Source: Candidatus Pacearchaeota archaeon (GTDB lineage Archaea; Nanobdellota; Nanobdellia; Pacearchaeales; GW2011-AR1). From it: a stretch of 41,915 bases of DNA. Position numbers and translations under genes: made by a program. Where the stretch lies: the NCBI GenBank assembly GCA_018303825.1, contig JAGVXK010000009.1, forward strand, positions 1 to 41,915, given 5' to 3'. Positions 3,447-31,903 of this stretch are shown piece after piece (position 1 is the stretch's first letter; every line of letters begins with the position of its first letter). Under the pieces are notes generated by a model, which saw only the letters and a list, made by a program, of their open reading frames with translations, made no database searches and was not told where the DNA came from.

Positions 3447-3596
3447 TATCCCATTAATATTTCCTAACGATATATTTTTCCGAGTTCTCATTTTCTAAGT
3501 GTCTCAGTTAGCTTCACTTGTGTCAATTTCATAGAGCTGTCTGGAACAGCCTTATGAAATAATTTCGGGATACCATATATTGATTTGCCAACGAAT

Positions 3597-3909
3597 ATGG
3601 AAAATGATTACACAGAACAGTTTTATAAGGTTGAATGTAGGGGCAGAGATGCTTCTGGAAAAGAAGTTCTTTCCAAACCAGAAAATGTGTTGGTGAAAAT
3701 TCACCAAGGAGTGAAGAACCCTAAGGCAAGACCTTAGGGCATTGGAAAGAATAAACAGCAATACAATATCCGGCATAATTAATTGCAAGTATAATTGCGG
3801 CAGACATGGAGAAAGATACAGAGTAGCCAATCCTAATGCTGACAAAGCAGAAGTAATTTGCTCCTACTCATTCGATATCCCTTATGCCTTGGAACACTTA
3901 AATAAGTAA
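3597..3909 (+). pseudogene. Hypothetical Cys-containing gene split by a frameshift at an 8-bp-stem hairpin
   Basis: ATG 3597 gives MENDYTEQFYKVECRGRD...KIHQGVKNPKARP* (TAG 3735); the +1 frame is open from 3715 to TAA 3909 (RALERINSNTISGIINCKYNCGRHGERY...CSYSFDIPYALEHLNK). Confidence 0.45.
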
Positions 3910-5625
3910 ATTCTTTATTTTTGATATTTCATCTATGACCTTTAACTCCTGAGATGATAGAACATCCTTGTTCTTCTTGAAATCCTTGAACTGCCTGTCG
4001 CTTATATCTGCATAAAGATATTTCTTGTCTTTTAATCTCCTTTCAAAATTAACTCCTGGAAGGGCTATTGCAATTTCATCCCCTTCTTTTGCCTCTTCCA
4101 CTGTTGATTTGTCCCTTTGAATGGATTTGACTCTTGCAATTTCCTCTCCGTCTTCGGCAATTAATGGGATTCCTGTTCTGATTCTTCCAGCAAGGACACG
4201 AACTCCAAAAATGGCGGGATTAAGATTTCTGAAAATATATTGATGCAGAATCTCTAATTTGCATATTGTAGCTAGACCAAGAAGCTTTTCTTTTTCTATT
4301 TGATTTGCCTTCTCAGTTCTCCAAAGTTGAAGGTCTTCTATTAATTTGTAGACAACGTCATTTGACAGGACTTTAACATTTCCAAGAATTTCTTTGGCAT
4401 CTTCTTCAACATCAACATTGAATCCAATAATTATTGCATTTAATGGATTTATCTCCAAATTGGCTTTTGCATTGACAATATCTGATTTTCCTATTAATCC
4501 GATGCCTGCTTTAAGAATCTGGATATTTGCCTGTTTCAGTAAAGTTATCAGCGCTTCCAAGCTTCCGAGAGAATCTGCTTTTATTATTATTCCTTGTTTG
4601 TCTGTTTGCAGAGCATTTGAAAATTCTTTCTTGAATTGCGAGACAACTTGCTTTATATCTTCCTTGGCTTCCTGGAAAGGCATACCTGCAAGAATTCCTT
4701 CGCTGTCGGCAAGCTGCATTCTCACTCCCGAGGCAGCAACTATCTTCTTTTCTGACTTGTACTTGTTTGTTAAAGAAAGGATTTCCTGTATTGCTCTGAC
4801 TTTTGTAATGATTGGATTGTCAAAGCTTGCTATAACTAACTGGTCACCTTCATCCAGTTTTCCATCATAAAGTATTGATTCTGCATAGTTTCCAGTTCTA
4901 TCTTTCTTAACTTCAAGGATTACTCCTTTAGCTAATTCTCCAAGCTTAAGCCTCTCTTTCAAAAATCTCTGGCATAAGCCGCAAAGAACAAATAATAATT
5001 CAGATATTCCTTCTTTTGTTCTTGCAGAGCAGGGAACTATAGCAAATTCTTTTGTAAAATCTTTTATATCGTGAAACAAAGCGGATTCGAATCCATGCTC
5101 CCTTAGATTCCCTTGGAAAGTTAAAAGTGCTTCCTGGAATTCCTGGGAAACATTTAACGCCTGAGATTCTATGCTTTCCTTTAAACTGCCCTCTCCTTTT
5201 CTCCATCCTGAAATTGTATCTATCTTGTTTAATGCAATGAGAAATGGAACTTTGTTTGCTTTCAATATCTGGAGAACCTCTGCAGTCTGGGGTTTTATTC
5301 CTTCTTTAACTGCAACAACAAGAATTGCTAAATCTGCAAGACTTCCTCCTCTTTTTCTTAGATTTGTAAAAGCAGCATGCCCGGGGGTATCTATAAATAA
5401 AAATCCAGGAATTTCTAATTTAATTCCCTGCTTTTCTATTAACGGACAGGCTTTGATTATTTGTTCTATTGGATATTTAGTAAAACTTATCTTCTGGGTT
5501 ATTCCTCCGGCTTCTCTCTCCCGAAGGTTTGTATTTCTAAAACAGTCCAGAATTGAGGTTTTTCCATGGTCTACATGCCCACATACTGTGACAATTGGTT
5601 GCCTTATCTTGTTTGCTTGTGCCAT
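3898..5625 (-). CDS. infB: Translation initiation factor aIF5B (IF-2)
   Basis: RQPIVTVCGHVDHGKTS, EAGGITQ, LFIDTPGHAAFTNLRKRGG, NKID, IKADSLGSLEAL, FRNLNPAIFGV. Confidence 0.98.
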   Translation of the reverse strand: MAQANKIRQPIVTVCGHVDHGKTSILDCFRNTNLREREAGGITQKISFTKYPIEQIIKACPLIEKQGIKLEIPGFLFIDTPGHAAFTNLRKRGGSLADLAILVVAVKEGIKPQTAEVLQILKANKVPFLIALNKIDTISGWRKGEGSLKESIESQALNVSQEFQEALLTFQGNLREHGFESALFHDIKDFTKEFAIVPCSARTKEGISELLFVLCGLCQRFLKERLKLGELAKGVILEVKKDRTGNYAESILYDGKLDEGDQLVIASFDNPIITKVRAIQEILSLTNKYKSEKKIVAASGVRMQLADSEGILAGMPFQEAKEDIKQVVSQFKKEFSNALQTDKQGIIIKADSLGSLEALITLLKQANIQILKAGIGLIGKSDIVNAKANLEINPLNAIIIGFNVDVEEDAKEILGNVKVLSNDVVYKLIEDLQLWRTEKANQIEKEKLLGLATICKLEILHQYIFRNLNPAIFGVRVLAGRIRTGIPLIAEDGEEIARVKSIQRDKSTVEEAKEGDEIAIALPGVNFERRLKDKKYLYADISDRQFKDFKKNKDVLSSQELKVIDEISKIKNLLI

Positions 5626-9978: not shown

Positions 9979-11376
9979 ATGCTAAAAGAAAATAAGTTAA
10001 TTGCTTCGGATGGCAATTTTGCGGAGAAGCTTGTTGATGACTTAAAATTAAGGGAAGAGGCTAGAAAGATAAGTATAAAAGAGTCTGCTGTTTCTGGATT
10101 TTCATCTGGTGTTGGAGACAACTATGTCACTTTATTTGGCCTTGCATTGAACGCGAATGCAACCCAAATTGGTTTTTTAAGCGCTTTTCCGGGATTATTA
10201 TCGCCAATATCTCAGTTCTTTGGCTCTAAATTGATGGAAAAACAGCCAAGACAGAAAATAGTTGCAAAATATGTTCTTATGCAAGCATTGATGTGGATAC
10301 CGATTGCTATTCTTGGAATTCTTTTTTGGAAATTAATTGCTATTAGGAGTTTGCCCTGGCTGCTTATATTTTTATATTCTATTCTTGCGATTGTTGGTGG
10401 CTTGATTGGTCCAGCTTGGTTTTCATGGATGGGAGATATTGTTCCAGCAGAAGAAAGAGGAAAGTATTTTGGAAGAAGGAATAAAATAGCTCATGGATCA
10501 AGCATAATTGCAATATTAATCGGATCTATTGTCTTGGACAGATTTGCAACACATGGCCTTGCTGTAATTGGATTTGCAATATTGTTCTCTGCTGCTTTTA
10601 TTTCAAGGATAATGGCTTACTTTTATTTAAAGAAGCAACACGAACCAAAACTCGAATTGAAGAAGGATTATTACTTCTCTTTCTGGGCGTTTCTTAAGAA
10701 ATATACTAATTTTACGAAATTTACTATTTACATTGCATTATTCAATCTTGCCTTGGCAATCGCCTCCCCATTCTTCACGGTCTATATGAAAGAAAACCTT
10801 GGACTTAGTTATATAATGATTATGATTGTAAATATGAGTATGCTTGCGTTCATATTATTATTCAATCCTCTTGTCGGAAAATTCTCAGACAAATATGGCA
10901 ATCTGAAGTTGATGTACATGGGAAGTTTTCTTCTTGCCCTTTATCCTGTTGGGTGGATATTTATAAAGAATCCAATCTTGCTTATTGCAATTGTGCAATT
11001 GATTGGAGGAATAGGGAACGCAGCCTATGCCCTCTCGCTTACAAATTTCATATATGACACTGTGACACCTCAAAGGAGAGGACTTTGTTTGGCTTATTTG
11101 AACATTCTCGCAGGAATAGGATTATTTATAGGACCATTGATAGGAGGTTACATTATAGACAATATCAATGTAACTTTTATGAGACCAATATTAATTGTAT
11201 TTGTTATATCGGCGATGGGAAGGTTTGTCGCGCCCACTTTTTTCCTTCCAAAGATAAAAGAGCTTAGAAAATTCCAGGAATTTCCATTCTCTACATATAT
11301 GTCATATCCGGCAACAGCAGTCATGAGATTAACAAGACAATTTGTGCATACAAGTTATTCCAAGAAAAAAGATTAA
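9979..11376 (+). CDS. Major facilitator superfamily transporter
   Basis: About 12 TM helices; WMGDIVPAEERGKYFG and GKFSDKYG (motif A-like) loops. Confidence 0.9.
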   Translation: MLKENKLIASDGNFAEKLVDDLKLREEARKISIKESAVSGFSSGVGDNYVTLFGLALNANATQIGFLSAFPGLLSPISQFFGSKLMEKQPRQKIVAKYVLMQALMWIPIAILGILFWKLIAIRSLPWLLIFLYSILAIVGGLIGPAWFSWMGDIVPAEERGKYFGRRNKIAHGSSIIAILIGSIVLDRFATHGLAVIGFAILFSAAFISRIMAYFYLKKQHEPKLELKKDYYFSFWAFLKKYTNFTKFTIYIALFNLALAIASPFFTVYMKENLGLSYIMIMIVNMSMLAFILLFNPLVGKFSDKYGNLKLMYMGSFLLALYPVGWIFIKNPILLIAIVQLIGGIGNAAYALSLTNFIYDTVTPQRRGLCLAYLNILAGIGLFIGPLIGGYIIDNINVTFMRPILIVFVISAMGRFVAPTFFLPKIKELRKFQEFPFSTYMSYPATAVMRLTRQFVHTSYSKKKD

Positions 11377-11393
11377 CGGAAAAAAATTATTAA

Positions 11394-11621
11394 TTATTTT
11401 TCAATAGTTTTCAATAATCCTATTTTTATCTTGCACTCACCATTAAACTTCGAAGTGCCGCCATGCTCCCCGCACATATACCTCATCATGTCAGTATTAT
11501 ATTTATCTAAGCTATTGAATAAACCTTGTCTTTTTTTATCGGCATCTGCCCCGGCTTGTGCAATCCTAACTTGACAAGTATCATAGAATTGGCATTTTCC
11601 CATTGTAATGCTACAATACAT
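11394..11621 (-). CDS. Small Cys-rich hypothetical protein
   Basis: CQFYDTC...MCGEHG...C; ORF track. Confidence 0.5.
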   Translation of the reverse strand: MYCSITMGKCQFYDTCQVRIAQAGADADKKRQGLFNSLDKYNTDMMRYMCGEHGGTSKFNGECKIKIGLLKTIEK

Positions 11622-11690
11622 GCCTTTTTAAATATTTATTCAATAAAGAGAATATTATGCTCATGTTAAGTTTGTTCTTCAAAATAAAAA

Positions 11691-11786
11691 ATGAAATCAA
11701 GAGTAATAAAAAACAAGTTCATATTTAACAATACAATGATTATTGCACTCAGATATTGTGAAAGTTGCGAAGGTCTATATATTTGA
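11691..11786 (+). CDS. Possible 31-aa CxxC mini-protein at the distal edge of the cassette array
   Basis: ATG 11691, MKSRVIKNKFIFNNTMIIALRYCESCEGLYI*, TGA 11784-11786; below the ORF-track cutoff. Confidence 0.25.
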   Translation: MKSRVIKNKFIFNNTMIIALRYCESCEGLYI

Positions 11787-11927
11787 GCAATTTCGAGTAA
11801 TCTGCTGTTGCTTGACCGAACGAAGTGAGGCACGAGTGGAGCAAAAAGCGACCTCGTGAGTTTTAATTTTTCTTTCAGGGTAGGGGATTGGAAAACAAGA
11901 GATTTAAATTTTAGCCGAAGAAAAAAT

Positions 11928-11948
11928 TTCACCTAATTATCTTATGTT
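11928..11948 (+). repeat. Boundary site A (divergent): TTCACCTAA-TTATC-TTATGTT
   Basis: TAA-5nt-TTA dyad at the same position relative to the downstream hairpin block as site C. Confidence 0.5.
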
Positions 11949-11954
11949 CTCGGC

Positions 11955-12060
11955 TCCTCGAAACGAGCCTCGAAAAATGGAGTTTTTCAGAGGTGCGAGT
12001 TTCAGAGATGAAACAACGAGGAAAATTAATTTAATACAAACTTTAGTAGGGCGGGGGACG
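11955..12060 (+). repeat. Hairpin-rich spacer, copy 1 of an approx. 106-bp direct repeat
   Basis: Near-identical to 13170-13277; differences fall in a stem (GAAAAA/TTTTTC versus GCAAAAT/ATTTTGC) and just before the G-tract. Confidence 0.9.
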
Positions 12061-12103
12061 ACACACCGATAATTTTATAAACTCTATAGTAATAACATAA
12101 ACT

Positions 12104-12451
12104 ATGAAACTAAAATATATGGGCAGGGCTGTTGGAGTATTTGATGCAGTAGCTTGGGTTATCGCAACTTCTCTTTGTTATAAAGTCCTCTCTAATGCTA
12201 ATTATAATTTTTTTATGGAAGAACATCCGATTGAACATAAGTTAATTGGGGGAGCTTATTTGGGACTTGTTGCTGCTTTTGTTCCAATTTCTGCCATGGG
12301 AATAACTGATGGAATTGTCGATGTAGTAAAAGGAACTCACCATTATTTTGGATTAAAAGTTTGGCAGAAATTGACTAGAAATCAAGAAACAAAAGCTAAA
12401 ATTCAATCGGATTTGGAAAAACAATTAGAGAGGATTGAACAGCCCTGCTAA
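12104..12451 (+). CDS. Hypothetical membrane protein (module A cargo)
   Basis: Two hydrophobic segments; TTTATAA 12074-12080 is 24 nt before ATG. Confidence 0.7.
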   Translation: MKLKYMGRAVGVFDAVAWVIATSLCYKVLSNANYNFFMEEHPIEHKLIGGAYLGLVAAFVPISAMGITDGIVDVVKGTHHYFGLKVWQKLTRNQETKAKIQSDLEKQLERIEQPC

Positions 12452-12529
12452 TTCTTTAGGTGTGCCGTCTGGGTGGGGGTTGGAAATAGATTAAATTAAT
12501 TTTCCGAAGAGTTTTCTCAGCAGAGACAA

Positions 12530-12551
12530 TTGAGTCTAATGGCTGTTAGTT
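12530..12551 (+). repeat. Boundary site B: TTGAGTCTAA-TGGCTG-TTAGTT
   Basis: Matches sites C, D, E. Confidence 0.75.
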
Positions 12552-12663
12552 TCTCCGAGTGAAACGAGGACGAGATTTTAATGTAATGTTCCCGAAGGGA
12601 AAAATCTCGAGTTCAAAGCGCCGAGTCAAAAGATTTATAATGTTTAACAGATTATATTCTATC

Positions 12664-13140
12664 ATGCGATATGAATTTGAGGATAGGGGCGAGACGACCA
12701 TTGTTGATACAAAACAATTGGATTACGAAGCAATTTGGGATGCCTTAAGATTGAGGAATGGACAAAGAGAAGGAGCAAATAAAATTATGGATTTATACAA
12801 TTCTGCCGACTTTAATGATAGAATTCTCATAGTTACTGCATGTTCTTGGATGAAGCCAGGTAATAGAGAAGCGCAGCGACATCAAGCAGACCATTATAGA
12901 ACAAGAATTGAATTAGAAAGGACTGCGCAAGATAATGGATTAGTTAAAAAATTATTACATAATGGAATTCTTAAGCTTCATCCAAAGTGGAGACCCCACT
13001 TAATTACGAGAAAAGAAGAGGAAGGCATAATTGTAATTGGTCCAGGACATCAAAGGCATTCCCAAGCACCATATAGATTAGATGTTTGGCGACTTCATGA
13101 ATTGGAGTCGAGCCCCGAGCTTGAATACGAGGCGCTTTGA
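12664..13140 (+). CDS. Hypothetical protein (module B cargo); start probably 12664 or 12640 rather than GTG 12559
   Basis: The upstream part of ORF 12559 is hairpin/IR sequence; TTTATAA 12634-12640 lies 24 nt before ATG 12664; stop codon lies inside the right IR. Confidence 0.65.
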   Translation: MRYEFEDRGETTIVDTKQLDYEAIWDALRLRNGQREGANKIMDLYNSADFNDRILIVTACSWMKPGNREAQRHQADHYRTRIELERTAQDNGLVKKLLHNGILKLHPKWRPHLITRKEEEGIIVIGPGHQRHSQAPYRLDVWRLHELESSPELEYEAL

Positions 13141-13141
13141 A

Positions 13142-13162
13142 TTGAGCATAATTATGTTAGTT
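13142..13162 (+). repeat. Boundary site C: TTGAGCATAA-TTATG-TTAGTT
   Basis: Matches sites B, D, E. Confidence 0.8.
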
Positions 13163-13169
13163 TCCTTTT

Positions 13170-13277
13170 TCCTCGAAACGAGCCTCGCAAAATGGGACAT
13201 TTTGCAGAGGTGCGAGTTTCAGAGATGAAACAACGAGGAAAATTAATTTAATAGTTACTTTCGTAGGGCGGGGGACG
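13170..13277 (+). repeat. Hairpin-rich spacer, copy 2
   Basis: Near-identical to 11955-12060. Confidence 0.9.
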
Positions 13278-13352
13278 GAAAAAGCTTTTTGATTCTTTTT
13301 CCTAAAAAGAAGAAGTTATGGGGCACTTTTCGTTTAGTAACTTTGTTTAATA

Positions 13353-13670
13353 TTATTCCCAAAGAGATTCTCGAGCTGCATCTTCTGAAATTCCTCTAGA
13401 TATAGCTAAAGTTTTAATTTCTAAATCTCCAACATCTACACCCAATATTCCAGAAAGTAAGTGTTGACTTTTATCATCTCCAACAGCGTTTCTAAACTCT
13501 CTGATGGCTGAGCATATATTCCCTGCATAAGTACTTCTTTCACTGGGGGTATATTCGGGGTTATATGGTCTTTCCAAGTCCATATTTAATAAATTTTTAA
13601 CTATTCTTCCAGCTACATTCATTTGGAAATTATCACAGACGGTATATCTTATTTGTGTTTGTCTTGTCAT
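13353..13670 (-). CDS. Hypothetical protein (module C cargo 1)
   Basis: ORF track, 105 aa; no family recognised. Confidence 0.6.
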   Translation of the reverse strand: MTRQTQIRYTVCDNFQMNVAGRIVKNLLNMDLERPYNPEYTPSERSTYAGNICSAIREFRNAVGDDKSQHLLSGILGVDVGDLEIKTLAISRGISEDAARESLWE

Positions 13671-13793
13671 TTTGTTTTATCCTCGTAACTTTCGTTACAA
13701 TAGAGTAGTCGCAAGGTATCTTATATAGTTTATCTCCCTCTTGGTGAGGTGTAAATAGAAAGATTTATATAACTGAAAAGCTTCTCTTAAAAT

Positions 13794-14540
13794 ATGAATG
13801 AAAAATTGCTTGAAGAAATTGGTTTGACTAAAGGAGAAATTAGAGTATATTTTACCTTGTTGAAGATAGGCGAGACTACAACAGGCAAGATAATCGAAGA
13901 GGCTCAAATATCCAGTGGTAAAATATACGAAATATTAGATAAGCTCATAAAAAAAGGACTTGTTGGCTTTATTATAAAAGAAAAAACAAAATATTTTAGT
14001 CCTGCTTCTCCAAATAGAATTTTAGATTATATTCACGAAAAAGAAAAAGAGCTTAATCAAAAAGAGCAAGAACTTGTAAAAGAATTGCCTTCTCTTATAG
14101 CGATAGGAAAAGCTGAGAAAGAGAAGAAAGAAACACATTTATTCAAGGGATTTAAGGGAATACAAACAGCAATTTTTGAAGCTCTAGAAGATTTAACTTC
14201 AAAAGATGAAGTTCTTGCGATGGGTATTCGTTCATCTAAAGAAGAAAGGTTTAATCTTCTCTGGCAAAGATGGCATATAGAAAGAGTAAATAAAAAGATA
14301 GTTTGTAAAGCCATTTTTTCAGATAAAAATACAGAGTATTACAAAACTTTTAAGAAAATGAAGTTTGTAGAAGTTAGAATTTTGGAAGGAGTTACGCCTT
14401 CTGCAATTGATGTAATGAAAGATAGAGTCTTAATTTTTACTTATGGAGAAGAACCATCTTGTTTGTCTATAAAAAATCCTGAAATCGCAGAGTCATTTAA
14501 GTCTTTCTTTGAGAATTTATGGAAAGTTGCAAAGAAGTAG
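13794..14540 (+). CDS. TrmB-family transcriptional regulator (module C cargo 2)
   Basis: LEEIGLTKGEIRVYFTLLKIG...IYEILDKLIKKGLV wHTH followed by PLD-like sensor region ending FKSFFENLWK; TTTATATA 13764-13771. Confidence 0.88.
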   Translation: MNEKLLEEIGLTKGEIRVYFTLLKIGETTTGKIIEEAQISSGKIYEILDKLIKKGLVGFIIKEKTKYFSPASPNRILDYIHEKEKELNQKEQELVKELPSLIAIGKAEKEKKETHLFKGFKGIQTAIFEALEDLTSKDEVLAMGIRSSKEERFNLLWQRWHIERVNKKIVCKAIFSDKNTEYYKTFKKMKFVEVRILEGVTPSAIDVMKDRVLIFTYGEEPSCLSIKNPEIAESFKSFFENLWKVAKK

Positions 14541-14640
14541 TTTAGAAAAGTGCCCATTATAGTCATCTCTGAAAAGAATTTTCAGCTATCTTTTCGTGCT
14601 TTTTCCGTCGGGTGGGGGAGGTAATAAGCAGACTTGCGAA

Positions 14641-14661
14641 TTGAGCCTAACGATGTTAGTT
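14641..14661 (+). repeat. Boundary site D: TTGAGCCTAA-CGATG-TTAGTT
   Basis: Contains GCCTAAC and GTTAGTT, i.e. integron-like RYYYAAC and GTTRRY cores only 3 nt apart. Confidence 0.8.
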
Positions 14662-14836
14662 TCCCCTTGCCTCGCGAAGACCCCTCCAATAACGAAGTTA
14701 TTGAGAGTGGGGCTGAGCAGAGCTGCAAGGGTTCGAAGAAAACCGTAGTTTTCTGAGAAAGTATGACGGAGGCGGCGGGCGAAAGTTATTCTTAATTATA
14801 TAAATATTTATAAGTAAGAAGGTGTTGTTAATTATC

Positions 14837-15064
14837 ATGATACTTGATCAACCGGAAAATTGGGGTGGTTTGGAAAATGAATTGGTTGGCACTCCGACAC
14901 CTTCTTACGACCCACAAAAGGCTGCTGAACAATTATATCAGTTCATACAAAAACAACCTTATGAAACTGTAGCACAATTTCAGATGATGGTAAATGAAAA
15001 GCCTTTTGTGCCATATAATAGACCCGCTATAAAATGCGGCAAGGTTGTTCCAGATTCTCATTGA
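14837..15064 (+). CDS. Hypothetical small protein (module D cargo)
   Basis: TTTATAA 14807-14813 is 24 nt before ATG 14837; flanked by GGCGGCGGGC/GCCCGCCGCC. Confidence 0.6.
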   Translation: MILDQPENWGGLENELVGTPTPSYDPQKAAEQLYQFIQKQPYETVAQFQMMVNEKPFVPYNRPAIKCGKVVPDSH

Positions 15065-15082
15065 GCCCGCCGCCGAGTAATA

Positions 15083-15103
15083 TTGAAACTAATTATGTTA
15101 GTC
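15083..15103 (+). repeat. Boundary site E: TTGAAACTAA-TTATG-TTAGTC
   Basis: Matches sites B, C, D. Confidence 0.8.
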
Positions 15104-15412
15104 GACCCTATCGAGATGAGCATCCTCGAAAAAATGGAGTTTTTTCAGAGCTGATGTGAATACTCCTGATAGGGCAAGAAAACAAAGAATATTGTTTTCG
15201 CAGAGTAAAAATCACTTTTCAGGGTGGGCATCGTATTAGAGAAGGCACTAGTTTCGTTTCATGGGGGGCTGAGTATCTAAGTTTTGCTTCTTTTTCTAAA
15301 AGAAGTTTTTAGTTAATTACCAAAGTTTTTTTGATTTTCTTCTTCGACCATCGCTAAACAAAGCTTTTCTTGCTTGTCCTTTTGAAGTTTTTGGTCCTGT
15401 TTTCTTTACCAT

Positions 15413-16897
15413 CTAAGATTTTACCCCCTTTTCAACTATTCCATTTTTATCACAAACCCAATAACCATTTTCTACTAACGAAGGAGAATTACTTATACTT
15501 CCTTGTAAAATGTAGATTGGAAATTCTGAATTATCTAAATACCATTCCGTAAAGAATTTCGCTCGATTACGATTAATCTCTATTTCTTCTGGAAATAAAT
15601 CATAAATCCAATTTTTTGCATCGTTATAATTATCAAAGTATTCAGAACGATATAACTTAGAACTTTGTGATGCTTCATTAAATTTTGTTTTACAAAAATC
15701 TAAAAAATCTTGATTGGATTGAATAACAACATTAGAATTTTCTGAACCATTTGTTACATTATTAATCTTCTTTTGATTTTCTTGTGGATTATTAAAAAGC
15801 AAAAAAACAGCAAAGATTAGTAATAATGAGATAATAAAAATTGAGGAGATTTTAAAAATTTTAAAGAATCTTTTCTTTTTCTCTAAAGACCTGGCTTTTT
15901 TTAATTCATATTCAAAACTTTTTCTTTCGGCGTTAGCAAATCCTTTTTTGCTTACACCCATACTTCTTACCTTTCCCCTAAGTTTCTCGTAATCCTCTTT
16001 AGATATTTTTCCATTGTCTCTTAATTCTTCTAAATCATCGATTTTCGTATCTCCCCATTTTTCATCTTCTAAATTTTCTTCTTGTTTTTCGATAAAAGTT
16101 TTTATTTTTTCAATATCAATAATTTTCCCAGATTTTCTAGATAAATCAATGTCGTTCCTAATTTTATCTAATATCAAATACCTCTTGTTAAAATCTAAGT
16201 CTAATTTCTTAACCATAGAAAATAATTCTTCTAATTCTATGTCCTCTACTCTACTTTCAGCTTGTTCATCTACTTCTCTTTCTTTCTCAAGAAGAATCTC
16301 GTTTTCAATTTTTTTAAGCTGAATTTCTCGTTTAGTATAATCTGAAAATTCTAATTTTTCTAATTGCTCAAAAATTGACCTTTTCTTATTTTTATCCTCA
16401 ATTTTTTCAATTTTGTCATAAAGAGAAGTTAATTTCTGTTCTTCTTCATCTTTTACCCTTTTTAGAACTTCTTTAATCTCGAGATTTTTCCCAACTTCTT
16501 CATATAAATCGACTAAATCTAATCTCTGGAGTTTTCTCCAATAATCTTCATTCCATAAGCATATTCCCTTTTTCTTTAAATTCATTATATATTCATCAGA
16601 TAAATTTTTATGCCCGGTTATAGCTAAGATAAGTTTATCTGCTTCTAAAGATTTTCCGTCTTCAACTAAATCTTCTATTACTTCTTCTATGTTTTCAAAA
16701 GGAAATTTTGCATAATCTTTACATTGAATTAAAATCTTTAGATTGCCTTTTATTGCTAAAACATCTTGTTCTGATTTTCGTCCATCTTCCTTTCTTGTAA
16801 AAATATGATTCCTTACAATAAAACCAATTCTTTGAAATAAGTCAAACATTTCTCTTTCAAATTTATCCCCCATCCTATCTCTGTTTTCGTCTTTCAT
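15413..16897 (-). CDS. PD-(D/E)XK (Mrr-like) restriction-endonuclease domain + coiled coil + TM protein (module E cargo)
   Basis: GDKFEREM...EQDVLA...LIQCKDY nuclease motif; long charged helical region; TM IFKISSIFIISLLLIFAVFLLF. Confidence 0.72.
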   Translation of the reverse strand: MKDENRDRMGDKFEREMFDLFQRIGFIVRNHIFTRKEDGRKSEQDVLAIKGNLKILIQCKDYAKFPFENIEEVIEDLVEDGKSLEADKLILAITGHKNLSDEYIMNLKKKGICLWNEDYWRKLQRLDLVDLYEEVGKNLEIKEVLKRVKDEEEQKLTSLYDKIEKIEDKNKKRSIFEQLEKLEFSDYTKREIQLKKIENEILLEKEREVDEQAESRVEDIELEELFSMVKKLDLDFNKRYLILDKIRNDIDLSRKSGKIIDIEKIKTFIEKQEENLEDEKWGDTKIDDLEELRDNGKISKEDYEKLRGKVRSMGVSKKGFANAERKSFEYELKKARSLEKKKRFFKIFKISSIFIISLLLIFAVFLLFNNPQENQKKINNVTNGSENSNVVIQSNQDFLDFCKTKFNEASQSSKLYRSEYFDNYNDAKNWIYDLFPEEIEINRNRAKFFTEWYLDNSEFPIYILQGSISNSPSLVENGYWVCDKNGIVEKGVKS

Positions 16898-16898
16898 C

Positions 16899-17120
16899 TT
16901 ATTTGTTATCTCCTTCTATCTTTATATTCTCTAGGTTTCCACATTTCCTACATAATAATTTTTTATCTTTTCTTCTAATATAGACAAATGAAGAACCGCA
17001 TTTTGAACACCTAAATCCGGTTTCATCTTCTCTAACATATTTTTTTAGAAGTTTGTTTAAATTAAAAACTTCTTCATTTATTTTACTCATTCTCTCTAAA
17101 ATTTCTTTACTTATATCCAT
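16899..17120 (-). CDS. Small zinc-ribbon protein (module E cargo)
   Basis: CSKCGS...CRKCG; likely start MDISKE at 17120 (ORF track GTG 17144 is too close to the TATA box at 17149-17158). Confidence 0.7.
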   Translation of the reverse strand: MDISKEILERMSKINEEVFNLNKLLKKYVREDETGFRCSKCGSSFVYIRRKDKKLLCRKCGNLENIKIEGDNK

Positions 17121-17320
17121 TTTGTGTGTAATGTTCACACTCACACATTATTTATAAACCTTTGGGTGTTGTATTAGTTATTCGAAGTCAGCCCCCTTCG
17201 TAATAAAATCGAGCAAACGGAAGTTTGCGAGCAAAATGTGGCGAAGCCACTAATAAAATAGTTCAGCCCCCCGTTCGTGTGCCTTCTCCTATTGGGTGGG
17301 AAAGAAAAGGGATTTTTATT

Positions 17321-17340
17321 TTGGCTAATGGTCTTTATAC
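17321..17340 (+). repeat. Boundary site F (array end): TTGGCTAA-TGGTC-TTTATAC
   Basis: Follows module E outer stem directly; left arm can pair with the right arm of site E over 9 nt (3 G.T). Confidence 0.5.
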
Positions 17341-17581
17341 GAAAAGGGGCTTATATGGGTGTAATAAGGGCTAAAAAGAGTGTTTTTGAATGACGACCTT
17401 GGAAATTATAGGAACTAGTGTCAAGAGGAAAAGGATTAATGATGTTGGCTAATTGGTAAAAGTTGATAATCATTATTGGTAAGTTGTTCATTAGAGAGGT
17501 TATTAATTGAACTTTATATAATTGTGTTTTAATTGTTGAATTACAAAATATATATTTAAATGTATATTTTATAGTATATAG

Positions 17582-18421
17582 ATGAGCTATTATCCTATTG
17601 ACATTGAAAGAGCTATAAAAAGAGAGTGCGAGAGGAGAAGATACAGCCCGAGGACTGCTAGAACTTATATCCATTGTGTTAATAAATTCCTTACTCTTTC
17701 TGGAAAAACGCTCGATAAGATAAGCAAGGGAGATGCCAGCGAGTTTTTGCATCATTTAAGTGAAAGGGGAAAATCTGGGAGCACAATTAATGTTTATCAT
17801 ATGGCTATAAGATTTCTTTTTATGGATATTCTTAGGAAGAATATAAGATTAGATATAAAATATTCAAAAGTGCCTTTGAAGCTGCCAGAGATTTTGACAA
17901 AGGAAGAAACTAGAAAGCTGATTAATGCTATTAGCAATGAAAAACATAGGCTGATGGTTGGATTTATGTATTCTGCTGGATTAAGGGTTTCTGAAATGCT
18001 TGATATGAAAGTTTGTGATATTGATTTTAAAAATAATTATGGCTTCGTTAGGAATGGCAAGGGGGGAAAGGACAGAATATTTGTTTTATCTCAAAAGATA
18101 AAACCTGAGATAAAAGAGATAATTGCCAAAGAAAAATTGAGTTCTGGGGATTTAATCTTTAGGAACAGGAATGGCAAGAAATATTCTACAAGAAGCATAC
18201 AGAAGATAGTCAAAAGAGCTGCCATGATTGCAGAGATTAATAAAAAAGTTCATCCGCATACTCTCCGGCATTCGTTTGCCACTCATTTGATTGAAAACGA
18301 CTATTCTATTAATGAAGTTCAGACCCTGCTTGGACATAAAAGTCTTGAAACAACAATGATTTATGTGCATCTCGCTGCTCCGAATATATTAAAAATAAAG
18401 AGCCCAATTGATAATTTATAA
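17582..18421 (+). CDS. Tyrosine recombinase, IntI-like/XerD-like, without integron I2 insertion
   Basis: N-terminal RRYSPRTARTY SAM-like domain; GLRVSE (R), GKGGKDR (K), HTLRHSFA (HxxR), LLGH, TMIY (Y); C-terminal KSPID. Confidence 0.95.
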   Translation: MSYYPIDIERAIKRECERRRYSPRTARTYIHCVNKFLTLSGKTLDKISKGDASEFLHHLSERGKSGSTINVYHMAIRFLFMDILRKNIRLDIKYSKVPLKLPEILTKEETRKLINAISNEKHRLMVGFMYSAGLRVSEMLDMKVCDIDFKNNYGFVRNGKGGKDRIFVLSQKIKPEIKEIIAKEKLSSGDLIFRNRNGKKYSTRSIQKIVKRAAMIAEINKKVHPHTLRHSFATHLIENDYSINEVQTLLGHKSLETTMIYVHLAAPNILKIKSPIDNL

Positions 18422-18519: not shown

Positions 18520-19803
18520 ATGGCAAAAACAAAACCAATATTGAACGTAGTGTTCGTGGGGCACGTTGACCACGGAAAGTCAACAACTATAGGCAGGCTT
18601 ATGTTTGATTCTGGAAAAGTTTCTCCTGAAGAATTGGAGAAATTGAAGGCTGAAGCGCAAAAACATGGGAAGGCTGGATTCGAATTCGCGTTCGTTATGG
18701 ACAAATTCAAAGAAGAAAGAGAAAGAGGAGTTACAATTGACCTAGCTTATCAAAAGTTAATTACAAACAAGTATGAAGTTACAATAATTGACGCGCCAGG
18801 GCACAAAGACTTCGTTAAAAACATGATTACCGGAGCCTCGCAAGCAGACGTAGCCTTCTTAACTCTATCGGCAAAAGACGGAGTTCAACCGCAGACAAAA
18901 GAGCACGTTTGGTTGTTAAGAACAATGGGGGTAGGACAGGTAGCTGTTGCAATAAATAAAATGGATGCTGTTGGATACAAGGAAGATATTTTCAACAAAG
19001 TAAAGGCTGATGCCGTTACATTGCTAAAGCAGGCAGGATACAAAACAGACGGGGTTACATTCTTGGCTATATCCGGACAGATGGGGGACAATGTTGTAAA
19101 GAAATCAACAAACATGCCTTGGTATAAAGGACCAACCATATTGGAGCAATTGGATTTATTCGCTCCACCTGAAAAACCAACCACATTGCCATTAAGAATG
19201 CCATTACAAGATGTTTATGAAATCACTGGAATTGGAACAGTTCCAGTAGGAAAGATTGAAACAGGGACAATGAAAGTTGGACAGAAAGTTTTGATTCTTC
19301 CGGGAAGATCAGGCAAGGGAGTAGAGGGGGAAGTTAGAAGCGTTGAAATGCACCATGAACAATTAACGCAGGCAGAAGCAGGGGACAATGTTGGAGTTAA
19401 CATTCGTGGTGTTGGCAAGAAAGACATTGCAAGAGGAGACGTCGTTTGTGACGCTGCAAAGCCGGCAACAATCGCAGAAGAATTCGTTGCACAAGTAGCT
19501 GTTATATCGCACCCAACAGTTATTGCTAAGGGATATACACCAGTATTTCACGTTCACACAGCACAAGTTCCGTGCCAGTTCATAGAATTAATTGAAAAAA
19601 CAAGCCCTGATGGACAGACAGCAAAAAACCCAGACTTTTTAAAGAACGGAGATGTTGCAAAAGTCAGAATTAAGCCAATTGGGAATCTTGTACTTGAAAC
19701 ACAAGCCACAAACCCGCACATGGCAAGATTCGCAATAAGAGACGCTGGAGCAACAGTGGCAGCCGGAGTTTGCATAGAGATAAAGGCAAAGCCATTGAAG
19801 TAA
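18520..19803 (+). CDS. tuf: Elongation factor 1-alpha (aEF-1A)
   Basis: [50 protein letters not shown]. Confidence 0.99.
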
Positions 19804-20207
19804 AAGTTAGTTCTGGTAAACATAAAAAATAAGCCAAAAATAAATAATAGATAACAACTATCTAGAAATTCATTCTATAAAACTAAATAATAAACGGATA
19901 AAATCAAAATGAAACTTATAAATTTTAAGAAAGATATGATGAACTCTAGGAATGTTATGAGATTTGGTCTATGGATTTATCTTTATGTTCTCATTAGTTT
20001 GATTTTTAATAAAAAACAAAACAAGATATTCCAAAGATGAAATAAGGTCGTAATTTAATCAATAATTTTGCAAAGATGTATAAAAGACTTGACAGCTTTA
20101 GAGCTATTAATTATTTTGCACTTGTATTCATGTTCATTTATTATTCACAAAAATAAAGAGTCAAGTCAACCAATAGGTTCTTACGCGCTTTTCACCTTCA
20201 ACTAAAT

Positions 20208-20561
20208 TTATTTCTGTTCTACAAGATAAGGGGCAACATTTTTTATTCCATCGAGAATTGTCCTGTCTTTGCTGCCTGATGAAACAATTACTTCTAAATG
20301 ATCTAGAAGCAATCGAAAAGAAGGGTGATTCAGTTTTGGCATAGACGAACGTACAACTATATCCCTGCCAGGCAAGTGAACAACTCTTATGTCCAATTTG
20401 TCATCCAGCATAACGCTTGCATCACTTTGGATAGATGTAAGATAAGTATGAATGTTGTTATACATTATTCTCGCAATCTCCTGCCCTTCACGAAGATAGA
20501 TTGGTGGTTTGGTTTTTGTTTCTGGTTCAAATGGGCAGTCGTATCTTAGTTTTACTATCAT
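20208..20561 (-). CDS. Hypothetical protein
   Basis: ORF track, 117 aa. Confidence 0.55.
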   Translation of the reverse strand: MIVKLRYDCPFEPETKTKPPIYLREGQEIARIMYNNIHTYLTSIQSDASVMLDDKLDIRVVHLPGRDIVVRSSMPKLNHPSFRLLLDHLEVIVSSGSKDRTILDGIKNVAPYLVEQK

Positions 20562-20659
20562 TAAAATAATAATTTATCATTATTTTTAAGTATTGTTATA
20601 TTTTTATGCTGTTTCTGGAACATAATAAACCTTATAAATAAGAAAGAACATCAGAAGTC

Positions 20660-21220
20660 GTGATAATAAAAGAGAGTAATAGAAAAGATGTGGAAGCGCG
20701 GTTAAGTACTATGGGGGATTACGTTAAAATTGATTATCTCTCAGAGTTGTTGAAAAATAATTTAGATTACGATACAAGAAGATTTGTTCTTCTGAAGTTA
20801 GCTTCAATTTACAAAAATAAAGGAATGCTGGCTGAAGCAGGAAGATTAGTGAGAAATGCTGCGGACATAAACACTACTTATGAAGGAATGATGAATGATT
20901 ATACGAAGGCAATGCAGCTATTTATTCAAAGCGGAGATTTTGATGAGGCAGACATCTCATTGAACAAGGCTGTTGCTTCATGCAATACCGAAGGACAAAG
21001 AGCTGCAATAAAAATAAAGAGAAAGGAAACTATTCAGTTGCAGGCGCAGGAATATATAAAAAGAGATAAAAGAAAACATGCGATGCTGGCCTTTGAGAAA
21101 TTACTTTCTATTCGGGAGACGAACAGCGATGAAAAAAGACAGGCGCAAACCCAGTTATTGAGATTGTATGAACAGCTTGGAAAAGTCAAAGAATTCTATA
21201 ACCTTCAGAAATCGATGTAG
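20660..21220 (+). CDS. TPR-like helical repeat protein
   Basis: Alpha-helical repeat pattern (LASIYKNKGMLAEA, AMQLFIQSGDFDEA). Confidence 0.65.
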   Translation: MIIKESNRKDVEARLSTMGDYVKIDYLSELLKNNLDYDTRRFVLLKLASIYKNKGMLAEAGRLVRNAADINTTYEGMMNDYTKAMQLFIQSGDFDEADISLNKAVASCNTEGQRAAIKIKRKETIQLQAQEYIKRDKRKHAMLAFEKLLSIRETNSDEKRQAQTQLLRLYEQLGKVKEFYNLQKSM

Positions 21221-21225
21221 AAAAA

Positions 21226-21395
21226 TGAAAGATAAATATGATTTAGTAAGAAAGTTATGCCAAGATTCTAAATTAGTGAGAATGGTTATTGAAAATCAAA
21301 AAAGGGCTGAACTTTTTGATAATGTAAAGAGAGCAAGAAAAGTTTATAGATTACCTGAAACTCATTATAATCTGCCCGCTGAACTCTATCTGTAA
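21226..21395 (+). CDS. Small hypothetical protein
   Basis: Likely start MKDKYDL within ORF 21168..21395. Confidence 0.4.
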
Positions 21396-21437
21396 ATTTA
21401 GTTATATATTTATAAACACTCTTTTCTCTATTAGACC

Positions 21438-21845
21438 ATGTCGCACATAAGCATTTCTGATAGGGGAAGTGTTAAGTTCGTGACAAAACTAAAAAATCCA
21501 TACAAACAAGCCCTTTCTATTCTAGAAGATTTCCCAGAAATAAGAAGAAATGCAGAGCAATCTAATAAGGGGCAAGCAGCATTTCTTCTGATTCAAGAGT
21601 TTAAGGCTAATTTAATGTTAAAAAGAATCGGGGAGGCAGAAAGACTTCTATCAGAGTTGGATAAAAACCCAATTTATGAAAAGGGATGCGCTGAATGTTA
21701 TTGCATACTTGGAAAAATGTATGAAGATAAATCTGACCATAATTTGGCGATGAAATATTACTTGAAGGCAGTTCAATGTGGACCAGAAACATATCATGTG
21801 GGCAGGGCAAAGTCGAGATTGTCTGAATTATTGGTCAAATATTAG
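21438..21845 (+). CDS. TPR-containing protein
   Basis: CYCILGKMYEDKSDHNLAMKYYLKAV TPR-like motif. Confidence 0.65.
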   Translation: MSHISISDRGSVKFVTKLKNPYKQALSILEDFPEIRRNAEQSNKGQAAFLLIQEFKANLMLKRIGEAERLLSELDKNPIYEKGCAECYCILGKMYEDKSDHNLAMKYYLKAVQCGPETYHVGRAKSRLSELLVKY

Positions 21846-22076
21846 TTAGCAGTACTTACTGAAAGAATTGTCATGGTTATCAGGATGAGCATCTTTTTCT
21901 GAGCTAGTATGGTGCTTTGTCATTTTTTCACTGGTTTCTTTCTTATTTTTTATCTTTTCAAGTTCAGATTTGATAAAGTTTTCTATTTTCTTTGACATTG
22001 AAATGCCTTCTTTCTTGCAATACGCAGAATAATCCTTATGTACCTGCTTATCAATATTGAATGTTTTTATTGCCAT
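21846..22076 (-). CDS. Ribbon-helix-helix (CopG-like) DNA-binding protein
   Basis: KTFNIDKQVHKDYSAYCKKEGISMSKKIENFI strand-helix-helix pattern. Confidence 0.65.
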   Translation of the reverse strand: MAIKTFNIDKQVHKDYSAYCKKEGISMSKKIENFIKSELEKIKNKKETSEKMTKHHTSSEKDAHPDNHDNSFSKYC

Positions 22077-22394
22077 CTTTTCTTTTTCTATATTAAATAA
22101 TGTTAAATAAGATTAATAAACTTTGCGGTTTATAGAAAAATGAGAAAGGGGAAAGACTAGTTATTTATACTTAAATAATATTATTTAATAAGTTGGGGTA
22201 TAATGCTATAATGGGCAAAGGTTTAAATAGGATATTTGTAAAGTAGATATGTAATGGAAGGAAGTTTGTATTACAATTACATTCATACTCGCTTCGGTTG
22301 ATGTCAAAAGATTGGGTTGTGAGCCCAAGGGGCTATATTCTTCTTTCTATTATAAAATAAATTGAAAGCTGGAAGGCTTAGGAGAAAACAAAAA

Positions 22395-23558
22395 ATGGCA
22401 AAAGTAAGTCCCGTATCGATAAAATACATGATACACGCTTCATTTAAGGCGCAAGGTCCTTTGGAAAAACCTGATGTAATCGGGGCTATATTCGGCCAAA
22501 CAGAAGGTCTTTTGGGAAATGAGCTTGAGATGAGAGAATTGCAAAAAGAGGGAAAAATAGGAAGAATTGAAGTTGAATTGGAGATTGTTGATGGGAAATC
22601 TGTTGGAGAAATACAGGTGCCGACAGCGCTTGATAAATCTGAAACCACCATTATTGCTGCCGCCCTTGAGACTATTGATAAAATAGGGCCGACAGAAGCA
22701 GAGATAAAAATAAACAAAGTTGAAGATGTAAGGGGAAGCAAGAGAGAATTCATTCTACAAAGGGCAAAAGCATTGCTTCAGAACTTGGAAGGAGATGCAG
22801 GCGATGAAATGGCAAAGACATTAAAAGAAGAATCAAGAGCAGAAAAAATACAAGAGTATGGCGCTGAAAAGCTTCCTGCCGGAGATCTTTCCGGAAATGA
22901 AGTAATTGTTGTTGAGGGAAGAGCAGATGTTGTTAATCTTTTGAAAAACAGGGTTAACAATGTAATGGGAATGAACGGGACTAAGCTTCCAGCAGAAATA
23001 GCAAAATTAAGCGAGACAAAAGAAATCACATTATTTGTTGATGGAGACAGAGGAGGAAAATTAATCGCTCAGAACGTTATCAACAATGCAAAAGTTGCTT
23101 ATGTTGCAGTTGCTCCTGATGGAAAGGAAGTTGAAGAACTGCAGGGAAAAGAAATTCTTATTGCTTTAAGAAAGAGACTTCCAACAGATGTTTTCTTGAG
23201 AGCATTGGCTAGAAATGGCAATGGAAGTGGGGATAATATGGAGATAATGAATGAACCTGAAGAAGAAAAAGAATATTCTGGAGATGCCAAGGCTGCTTTA
23301 AGAAAGGCATATGAAAATATTAAAGGAAGCAAGTCTGGATTGCTCCTTGACACAAACATGGATGTTATAAGAAAAGTTTCTTCAAAGGAAATCGGCAAAT
23401 ATGCCCGCGGTTCAAGAACAAGAATTTATGCATTAGTTGTGGATGGAACAGCAACAGCTGGATTAATAGAAATGTGCGATGAACTCAATGTCAAATATCT
23501 TGCTGCATTGAATTTCTCAGCAGTTGCAAATGCGAGAGTGAATTTAGTTTCTTTGTAA
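22395..23558 (+). CDS. dnaG: Archaeal DnaG-type primase
   Basis: KPDVIGAIFGQTEGLLG, ELQKEGKIGRIEV, AALETIDKIGP, TOPRIM IVVEGRADV and FVDGDRGG; start MAKVSP. Confidence 0.96.
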   Translation: MAKVSPVSIKYMIHASFKAQGPLEKPDVIGAIFGQTEGLLGNELEMRELQKEGKIGRIEVELEIVDGKSVGEIQVPTALDKSETTIIAAALETIDKIGPTEAEIKINKVEDVRGSKREFILQRAKALLQNLEGDAGDEMAKTLKEESRAEKIQEYGAEKLPAGDLSGNEVIVVEGRADVVNLLKNRVNNVMGMNGTKLPAEIAKLSETKEITLFVDGDRGGKLIAQNVINNAKVAYVAVAPDGKEVEELQGKEILIALRKRLPTDVFLRALARNGNGSGDNMEIMNEPEEEKEYSGDAKAALRKAYENIKGSKSGLLLDTNMDVIRKVSSKEIGKYARGSRTRIYALVVDGTATAGLIEMCDELNVKYLAALNFSAVANARVNLVSL

Positions 23559-31369: not shown

Positions 31370-31372
31370 TTT

Positions 31373-31588: not shown

Positions 31589-31746
31589 GTTTTCTCAAAT
31601 CAATTTCAATTTAAATACCTTTCTAAATACAAGTTTTTTTTGAGTTTTGATAAAATACTTAAAGTATCAATCTTATTTTTTGTCCGAAGAAAATCTTAAA
31701 ATAAACATTTAAAAACCACAAAACTTAAATCATTTTATCATTAAAT

Positions 31747-31818: not shown

Positions 31819-31903
31819 TGTATCATTCTGGAGTAATAACAAATTAGAAAGATTTATAAAGGGCAAGACGCCCCTAAAAATATAAGAAAATTATAACTTT
31901 ATT

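Follow-up and report, generated by a model that had tools for sequence, protein, structure and literature searches.

Integrons are the textbook platform for the capture of gene cassettes, and are defined by two components, the integrase IntI and the attC site. Among Xer recombination sites, cer and psi consist of a core site with about 150–200 bp of accessory sequence on one side; at cer and CTX, single-strand exchange is completed by other means, and CTX provides a folded single-stranded substrate. The cer, psi and CTX-type integrative mobile elements exploiting Xer (IMEX) rely on host Xer proteins together with named accessory proteins, and are not cassette arrays. In the archaeal integrons published so far (Ghaly et al. 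2022; PMC9668308), the attC sites are of the classical kind and IntI carries its additional domain. The dif site, as described in the consulted part of a review (PMC8371274), is single-copy and consists of two 11-nt inverted arms around a short spacer. Here we analyse a 41,915-nucleotide contig of a Candidatus Pacearchaeota archaeon (JAGVXK010000009.1, contig C5 of assembly GCA_018303825.1; this whole stretch is hereafter the window), from a genome of 0.8 Mb in 23 contigs with ~34% G+C, in which four short sites lie upstream of a gene for a Xer-like tyrosine recombinase that we call Int-W. We interpret the four sites as junctions of a chromosomal gene-cassette array served by this adjacent Xer-family enzyme, with a probability of about 0.8. 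Judged from its sequence, the system appears to be a tyrosine-recombinase cassette platform, integron-like and built from dif-type parts.

A model's reading of the letters (the original prediction) had pointed to four copies of an ultra-short boundary site, each preceded by AT. All four strings are present on the + strand of the window, at 12530, 13142, 14641 and 15083, and AT precedes every copy, so that the left arm begins ATTGA. The pattern TTGANNNTAAN{4,7}TTAGT has four matches in the window against 0.16 expected, far above chance, with 0 of 100 shuffles reaching four; over the whole 805,733-base genome it returns the identical set and none extra. R1, a model derived purely from the core sequences of 27 sites in this and related genomes, finds only the four sites in the genome at E ≤ 10 (30.7, 27.6, 27.4 and 21.7 bits), and the next-best match in the window with filters off reaches 8.5 bits. 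Genome-wide scatter of the motif, which the original prediction had named as evidence against itself, is thus not seen, as the pattern and R1 scans both give the cluster only. Across relatives, loose and stricter regular expressions match at about the rate of a reversed-pattern control and are not discriminating alone; true sites there were separated from chance matches by their flanks, and later by R1.

In the 27-site alignment, the extended core comprises an 11-nt left arm (ATTGARNNTAA), a spacer of 5–6 nt and a right arm (TTAGTTTC), which corresponds to dif, with its pair of inverted 11-nt arms on either side of a 6-nt spacer. The spacer consists of 3–4 variable letters followed by an invariant TG; the conserved G before TT proposed earlier is accordingly found in 27/27 aligned sites. 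Centres of mostly 5 nt had also been proposed, which is true for three of the four window sites; across the alignment, the spacer is 6 nt in 19/27 sites and 5 nt in 8/27. The core itself is real, but the label ‘ultra-short’ is incomplete, since the core only starts a composite junction of about 150–200 nt, which also takes in the hairpin module and the inverted repeats that flank the cargo. This larger junction, the cassette-specific terminal inverted repeats and two degenerate end sites had not been part of the original prediction. Unlike a single-copy dif, the site occurs in four good and two degenerate copies within 5.4 kb, and relatives’ arrays have up to six sites each.

The gene for Int-W (17582..18421, + strand; 279 aa) starts ~2.5 kb downstream of site 4, the last of the four. 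Its best matches among solved structures are IntI4 (2a3v, E 2.4e-40) and Pyrococcus abyssi XerA (4a8e, E 2.1e-38). Int-W is colinear with XerA in alignment; against IntI4, phmmer places query residues 13–198 on 10–199 and 205–277 on 246–318. The IntI-specific insert around patch III is missing, as IntI4 residues 200–245 (~46) face only six residues in Int-W. In a family sample of 120 genera, proteins 35–46% identical to Int-W are nearly universal, and orthologs (≥50% identity) occur in 13/120; the Int-W clade is patchy and separate from XerA-like clades, and does not behave as a widely conserved Xer. The genome carries a second Xer-like gene, of the XerA clade, on contig C4.

The distribution of the sites follows that of this enzyme. 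In 8 of the 13 ortholog-bearing genera, the contig of the ortholog also has R1 sites, upstream of the gene and in its orientation. A single-protein query retrieved no related loci, and an ortholog alignment query retrieved 76 public-genome loci; the relatives with loci are titled Woese-, Pace-, Nano- or Aenigmarchaeota. All 67 R1 matches in these loci (E ≤ 0.5; 33/76 loci) are upstream of the integrase on the same strand, where only 15.5% of strand-positions would qualify, although the 76 loci overlap the family sample and are mutually related, and the 67/67 count overstates independence. Where the upstream DNA of a clade locus extends to 1 kb or more, R1 matches are present in 27 of 37 cases, and in four whole genomes (one complete) 11 of the 12 matches at E ≤ 1 fall in the array beside the integrase. 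A quick maximum-likelihood tree places 32/32 site-associated integrases in one clade of 65 rows (Shimodaira–Hasegawa-like approximate likelihood ratio test, SH-aLRT, 96); the C4 paralog falls in one of two XerA-like clades that are separate from it. This is strong comparative evidence for the proposed tie between sites and neighbouring integrase, and the accompanying ideas, that the sites bound modules and have the simple-site format of tyrosine recombinases (here 11-5/6-11), are likewise supported. The cassette array also accounts for frequent contig breaks just upstream of Int-W genes, since assemblies are expected to break in a variable array: 24/76 integrase genes lie at most 300 bp from the contig or locus start.

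Between the last cassette and the integrase gene lies a further, attI-like site. This terminal site has a variable left arm followed by TAA-CAGRCT-TT(T)Ann-CGAA, and the pattern is found 109–290 bp before the integrase start codon in 26 loci; one extra match is a stray on the opposite strand. In this genome the sole match is at 17326, and the site (17318..17345, + strand; ATTTTGGCTAA-TGGTCT-TTATACGAAAA), whose right arm is similar to canonical dif arms, precedes the integrase ATG by 256 bp. The locus therefore has the co-oriented array beside an integrase gene and a platform site that is expected of an integron; read from the other strand it has the integron layout, with the recombinase transcribed away from the platform site and cassettes.

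The dif format brings up the explanation that the sites are chromosomal dif copies, and the modules IMEX-type elements integrated in tandem at dif by the housekeeping XerA. The cores do have the 11-6-11 format of dif (consulted part of PMC8371274), TTATACGAA, the right arm at the terminal site, is similar to the canonical dif arms of relatives, and a number of left arms have exactly the sequence of the XerC-side arm of Acinetobacter pdif (consulted part of PMC13141974). However, the adjacent integrase belongs to the patchy accessory clade rather than to either of the two widespread XerA-like clades, for which this genome has its separate gene on C4; dif is single-copy by definition in the same part of the review (PMC8371274), and the cassettes are without replication or virion genes. 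Moreover, a coordinate comparison between dif-like matches and XerA-like genes gave 23 relatives in which a canonical dif-like site lies no more than 10 kb, and often no more than 1 kb, from the XerA-like gene. Cassette-type sites are present on other contigs in at least four of the 23 (G016, G143, G335 and G022), which implies that the cassette system exists side by side with the housekeeping pair and is distinct from it. We regard the sites as very unlikely to be dif copies. The canonical dif-like dyad (TTCGYAYAA-N6-TTRTRCGAA, at most two mismatches) matches in 39/121 family genomes, although a reversed-pattern control also matches a fair number of genomes and single matches are weak evidence; it has no match in this genome at that tolerance, where a generic dyad search for dif candidates returned too many chance matches in the AT-rich sequence.

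Some other dyads in this genome are of note. On contig C18, at ~10983–14570 (locus L428, ~1984–5570), a 3.6-kb stretch between housekeeping genes holds four dif-like dyads with another arm type: TTCGCTTAA-N6-TTAAACGTA, CGCGTCTAA-N6-TTAAGCGAA, and TGCGCCTAA-TCTAGT-TTAAACGAA twice, in identical copies 3.4 kb apart. They flank open reading frames (ORFs) of no family, with no recombinase gene beside them, and could represent either the genuine dif region, into which modules have integrated, or a second array of modules. The start of the same contig (positions 9–38) has a near-perfect dyad with an 8-nt spacer, ATTGAAATTAA-GGCATTAT-TCAATTTCAAT, whose left arm is like a cassette left arm. At the end of contig C12 (34932–34942), the letters TTCGCATAAat form a canonical dif-type arm that is cut off and could be part of the missing dif.

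The array of the window, from about 11926 to 17345, is chromosomal and comprises five cassettes and six junctions, namely a degenerate distal junction, the four sites and the terminal site. Each cassette begins with a right arm (TTAnnnnC) and a folded module of 70–130 nt, continues with its cargo, and ends with a left arm (GnnnnTAA, with ATT before it); a TATA-like box, read by eye, follows the module ahead of the cargo, with the arms and repeats outside it. Adjacent cassettes are joined via the 5–6 nt spacer (NNNNTG), so that each junction is a hybrid core of dif format. Two lines of evidence, the arms and the repeats, identify the cassette as the inherited unit.

For the arms, we compared the 8 nt next to the spacer in 52 neighbouring site pairs at most 3 kb apart, after one site outside the arm pattern (L069, 14917) had been dropped. 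In 26/52 cassettes, the right arm of the first site and the left arm of the following one are perfect reverse complements (8/8); shuffled pairings give a mean of 7.0 and a maximum of 16 (5000 shuffles), the two arms of one site match in 12/99 cases, and the reverse pairing, in which the left arm of a site is matched with the right arm of the next, succeeds in 6/52. Module-side arms are thus inverted copies of each other, as in pdif modules. Many of the matches are compensatory and off consensus, e.g., TTAGGCAC/GTGCCTAA and TTCAACGA/TCGTTGAA, and one off-consensus pair replaces even the TAA/TTA letters.

For the repeats, exact inverted repeats of at least 10 nt flank the cargo in 31/46 cassettes, against 7.1% of 1998 mismatched pairings. 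One copy sits just after the module and its partner in the last 100 nt before the next core, often abutting it. Cassette ends are therefore mutually complementary over ~20–27 nt, with the module interrupting one side, while the sequences vary by cassette. Pairing that is kept without sequence conservation points to a folded strand or cruciform, an argument classically made for attC.

In the window, where features are on the + strand unless stated, the array opens with the degenerate distal junction, site 0 (11926..11952; ATTTCACCTAA-TTATC-TTATGTTCTCG), which scores an insignificant 3.4 bits with R1. The regions of site 0 and site 2, junctions included, are 87% identical column by column, and a copy of the site-2 module follows; the site 0 call rests on this flanking homology and that of the terminal site on the terminal-site pattern, as R1 detects neither. 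Cassette 0 has a hairpin module at 11953..12067 with the G-rich motif GGGCGGGGG and left repeat halves at 12020–12035 and 12057–12067, a cargo ORF at 12104..12451 (115 aa, no Pfam family), and right repeat halves within 12459..12505, around GGGTGGGGG; of these, 12490–12505 pairs perfectly with the first left half over 16 nt, and 12459–12469 pairs with the second.

Site 1 (12529..12556; ATTGAGTCTAA-TGGCTG-TTAGTTTCTCC; 30.7 bits) leads into the module of cassette 1 (12546..12622), a helix around the conserved unpaired 10-mer TAATGTAATG with a C-GAA-G hairpin. Its cargo ORF (12664..13140; 158 aa from an in-frame ATG) has no Pfam family, and its left repeat, 12613–12622, pairs with 13131–13140, which abuts site 2 (13141..13167; ATTGAGCATAA-TTATG-TTAGTTTCCTT; 27.6 bits). 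Cassette 2 has a long imperfect hairpin as its module (13157..13331), again with GGGCGGGGG, and two cargo ORFs: one of 105 aa on the − strand with no Pfam family (13353..13670), and a TrmB-family regulator (13794..14540; 248 aa; PF01978, E 1.7e-15). Its left repeats at 13275–13285 and 13321–13331 pair with 14598–14608 and 14545–14555, respectively, in the right repeat region (14545..14621), which also holds GGGTGGGGG.

Site 3 (14640..14666; ATTGAGCCTAA-CGATG-TTAGTTTCCCC; 27.4 bits) is followed by the module of cassette 3 (14656..14780), whose left repeat at 14771–14780 pairs with 15065–15074 across a 75-aa ORF of no Pfam family (14837..15064). Site 4 (15082..15108; ATTGAAACTAA-TTATG-TTAGTCGACCC; 21.7 bits) has a left arm that is perfectly complementary to the right arm of site 3. 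In cassette 4, the module (15098..15273) is followed by cargo on the − strand (15413..17144), a 494-aa ORF with a match to Mrr_cat (PF04471, E 5.4e-4) that is weak and under the curated cut-off, and an 81-aa zinc-ribbon ORF with weak family matches; the left repeat, 15263–15273, is complementary at 10/11 nt to 17262–17272, a pair read by eye.

The G-rich motif recurs along the array. GGGYRGGGG has six copies in the window, five of them on the + strand inside the array (11878, 12049, 12471, 13266 and 14610), on the outer side of the cargo-flanking repeats, so that upon pairing of the repeats the two copies of a cassette would face each other as G-rich strands. Similar GGGTGGGGGG motifs occur on contig C3 at 7969 and 9649.

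Modules in general fold into imperfect hairpins. One type recurs in many genera, with a helix around a conserved unpaired 10-mer (TAGTGCAACG) and a small hairpin. Across 23 sequences this helix is 96.6% paired, compared with 79.5% in column shuffles (0/500 as high) and 25–73% with the partner slid, and six of its nine pairs have changed on both sides. Among 99 modules there are 56 GNA triloop hairpins with stems of at least 4 bp, against 4.0 in shuffles; 42/55 are closed by C-G, and GNRA tetraloops are rare. C-GNA-G loops are a hallmark of stable DNA mini-hairpins, not of RNA hairpins. Their dominance is a hint, not a proof, that the folded form is DNA.

Such covariation could also be expected if the repeats were the 5′ ends of a structured RNA, a terminator or a regulatory element such as a TrmB operator, and not recombination sites. 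The covarying helix with its conserved unpaired 10-mer, the presence of a few G-U pairs on the given strand and the TrmB genes in or near several arrays fit this explanation, but Rfam has no matching family, either at gathering scores or up to E 10, and the prevalence of C-GNA-G triloops over GNRA tetraloops is a DNA-type pattern. Three features would also be left unexplained: the bracketing of cargo by its own complementary arms and repeats, outside the apparent promoter (the promoter read by eye); the position of all sites upstream of one recombinase clade; and the free recombining of junction flanks. Most arrays are without TrmB. Binding by TrmB had been the second outcome to which the original prediction would have yielded, and TrmB turns out to be cargo of some arrays and not a fixed partner. 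We judge an RNA or regulatory element to be highly improbable as an account of the sites.

The cargo fits the reading of the array as a cassette platform, being varied and of an accessory nature. Across the 52 cassettes, lengths range from 94 to 2822 bp with a median of 766 bp, and five are mini-units of 94–162 bp that are too short for a listed ORF. Of 71 cargo ORFs, in both orientations, 26 have Pfam matches, which include HEPN and nucleotidyltransferase pairs, ParE and PIN; several methyltransferases; NUDIX, CYTH, SET and HD domains; a short-chain dehydrogenase, a class II aldolase, an MFS transporter and a C39 peptidase; and TrmB and winged-helix regulators. In the window, the small cargo ORFs have no family, and the larger cargo comprises the TrmB regulator and the weak Mrr-like ORF with its zinc-ribbon ORF. 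Cargo apparently carries its own TATA-type promoter.

Mini-units without an ORF, terminal inverted repeats on each unit, and unit ends that are conserved across genera while the cargo differs are also what would be seen if the units were small elements akin to miniature inverted-repeat transposable elements, moved by some transposase and inserting side by side, with the integrase unrelated. However, no transposase is associated with the arrays, and the units occur only head-to-tail beside the Int-W clade and are not scattered. A 5–6 nt spacer ending in TG, within a dif-format core, invariably stands between one unit and the next, and a conserved terminal half-site lies by the integrase. This is the explanation to which we give least credence, with hardly any weight.

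A comparison of junctions indicates where the cassettes would be exchanged. Among junction flanks, 0 pairs are alike on both sides, 42 on the right flank only and 12 on the left only; whole-cassette comparison between genomes finds shared ends and unshared cargo, and no same cassette in two places. These observations fit reassortment at the core. Left-flank similarity stops at TAA, and on the right, similarity sets in at TG-TTA or immediately ahead of it; these breakpoints lie on either side of the spacer, which places the crossover in the spacer or at its edges. Anatomy, linkage to one recombinase clade, cassette inheritance, covariation and varied cargo are in our view established.

Which protein cuts, the exact cut position and whether one or two strands are exchanged are matters that we infer. 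We envision that Int-W would bind both arms and exchange strands at the spacer edges. Cassettes would be excised as circles, in which a cassette’s own two arms form a symmetric core, and circles would re-insert at the attI-like site by the recombinase gene, or at other junctions. The substrate may be, at least in part, a folded single strand or cruciform, as with attC, because arm pairs and repeats keep complementarity and not sequence, and modules are rich in C-GNA-G hairpins. A single exchange at G^TT, as proposed originally, may occur and agrees with the variation of the first 3–4 spacer letters within arrays and the invariance of TG, but the terminal junction indicates the other edge, at least for insertions. 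There, a platform-specific spacer (CAGRCT; TGGTCT in the window) stands beside variable left arms, which would put the insertion crossover at the other spacer edge. Spacers are shared by 7/42 right-flank-only pairs and 1/12 left-flank-only pairs, against a background of 4.8%, a weak lean to the right.

Several points weigh against the interpretation of the sites as junctions of an Int-W-served array. The evidence on the edge of exchange is conflicting, and spacer heterogeneity would hinder ordinary two-strand exchange. Of the 37 clade loci that reach 1 kb or more upstream, 10 show no site, and several family-sample genomes have sites and no ortholog found, the sites often being near contig ends. 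Direct traces of recombination, such as a circular cassette, an empty site or a junction that differs between strains, were not found. The hairpin module might act as RNA. In the window, only cassette 3 has perfect arms, those of cassettes 1 and 2 matching at 5/8 and 6/8, and the end sites 0 and 5 are degenerate; with a single perfect pair, the window array may be old and inactive.

Contigs from four groundwater and soil DNA runs cover the region at ~20× summed depth, with spikes over modules of 335–500 at 11835–12101, ~270–310 at 12369–12635 and ~90–100 at 15039–15305, so that modules are multi-copy in those communities. Joints in the metagenome contigs are short-sided and at repeated motifs, and excision or rearrangement is not readable from them. 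Among the matches listed in a metagenome scan, about a dozen short contigs looked genuine and none adds a long array; among those listed in a scan of viral contigs, no stricter-pattern locus has module-like sequence after it, as judged by eye. A 175-kb IMG/VR contig (L132, 5001–5024) and a metagenome contig (L306, 1279–1302) share a near-perfect dyad, ATTGAATCTAA-(5 nt)-TTAGTTTCAAT, with the same flanks, no hairpin module following, and R1 scores of 19.6 and 17.9 bits.

A bolder extension of the cassette-platform reading can be formulated. These DPANN archaea may possess a second kind of integron that evolved independently, by duplication of XerA/dif, with a substrate specified by its fold, the cargo looped within its own attC-equivalent, and a single-strand exchange completed by replication; we offer this tentatively and consider it more doubtful than probable. 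A dedicated Xer paralog would then capture and shuffle cassettes whose ends pair via the arms, a private repeat and a bulged module, a picture that we likewise regard as speculative.

Further observations concern the surroundings of the array. The window also encodes aIF2/eIF5B, aEF-1alpha, archaeal-type DnaG and RNase HII. An EF-1alpha to DnaG cluster lies near array and integrase in three genomes (L388, 1907–5481; L360, 7722–11213; window, 18520–23558), on sides and in orientations relative to the array that differ among the three; this vicinity suggests a sedentary chromosomal platform with local rearrangement. TrmB homologs 31–36% identical to the window cassette TrmB are found 1–4 kb downstream of the integrase in four loci (L368, 7938–8684; L391, 5922–6653; L369, 14476–15204; L397, 3628–4335), and TrmB genes are cargo in L251 and L062; this recurrence near arrays may be coincidence or reflect a recurring regulator. 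A decayed integrase with 14 in-match stops (3 TGA, 2 TAG and 9 TAA) stands beside a good site in L061/L423 (G095 C1:36540–37373). Elsewhere in the window, an IS240-type DDE transposase fragment (160–411, − strand; E 7.7e-6, just under the curated cut-off) adjoins a tRNA-Met at the contig start (492–572, + strand), and a HicA/HicB toxin-antitoxin pair (31145–31588, − strand) lies just upstream of a tRNA-Asp (31746–31819).

The lineages concerned, titled Woese-, Pace-, Nano- and Aenigmarchaeota, have genomes below 1 Mb in which gene exchange is poorly understood. Here the capture logic of integrons is seemingly assembled from other parts: a plain Xer-type recombinase, dif-format cores and inverted cassette ends. 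If active, the system would explain the exchange of accessory genes such as toxin-antitoxin pairs, methyltransferases and transporters among these symbionts, would show that cassette platforms arose from Xer/dif more than once, and would offer a minimal pair of recombinase and site for bench work. We found no description of this arrangement in the literature searched, which did not extend to paywalled papers and supplements.

With cer and psi, the junctions share a one-sided accessory stretch beside a core Xer site, and with CTX a possible folded single-stranded substrate; the sites here form cassette arrays, and neither accessory proteins nor single-strand exchange are in evidence. The archaeal XerA/dif pair has the same site format (PMC8371274) and an enzyme, XerA of P. 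abyssi, with which Int-W is colinear, and in this family dif too adjoins its recombinase gene. It differs in that dif is single-copy and the present sites form arrays, in that Int-W forms a separate, patchy clade, and in that cassette arms differ from the canonical dif-like sites of relatives. The Acinetobacter dif modules, within the part of PMC13141974 consulted, resemble the cassettes in their Xer-type 11-6-11 sites between modules, in module-side arms that are inverted copies with spacers that vary between sites, and in a cargo of small accessory genes and toxin-antitoxin pairs. In that system (PMC13141974), which is plasmid-borne and served by the host's XerC and XerD, successive pdif sites face opposite ways (C/D, D/C) and have distinct XerC and XerD arms. 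By contrast, the array sites here are on one strand of a chromosome with TG at the same spacer end, beside one dedicated recombinase gene, an attI-like terminal site and, in each cassette, a hairpin module.

With integrons, in the consulted part of PMC9668308, the system shares a tyrosine recombinase gene next to a platform site, short and varied cassettes that are often unannotated and are arrayed in one orientation, a recombinase transcribed away from the array, toxin-antitoxin pairs in the cargo, and recombination elements conserved in pairing and not in sequence. Unlike integrons, its junction is a simple 11-5/6-11 dyad and not a 55–140 nt attC hairpin, an imperfect fold with R″, L″, L′ and R′ boxes and the crossover in R′: the R″-like and R′-like motifs are 5–6 nt apart in one dyad, with the hairpin module to one side, and the paired elements are the two cassette ends, with cargo inside the loop. 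Cargo lies in both orientations and apparently has its own promoters. A classification paper reports that the IntI insert is not fully conserved within an ‘integron-like’ subgroup and groups Xer-related enzymes from candidate phyla as ‘Cand’. As Int-W is without the IntI insert and the junctions are not attC hairpins, the system is not a classical integron. The sites hold up as probable boundary recombination sites for the neighbouring integrase, for which ‘between dif and attC’ is a fair description.

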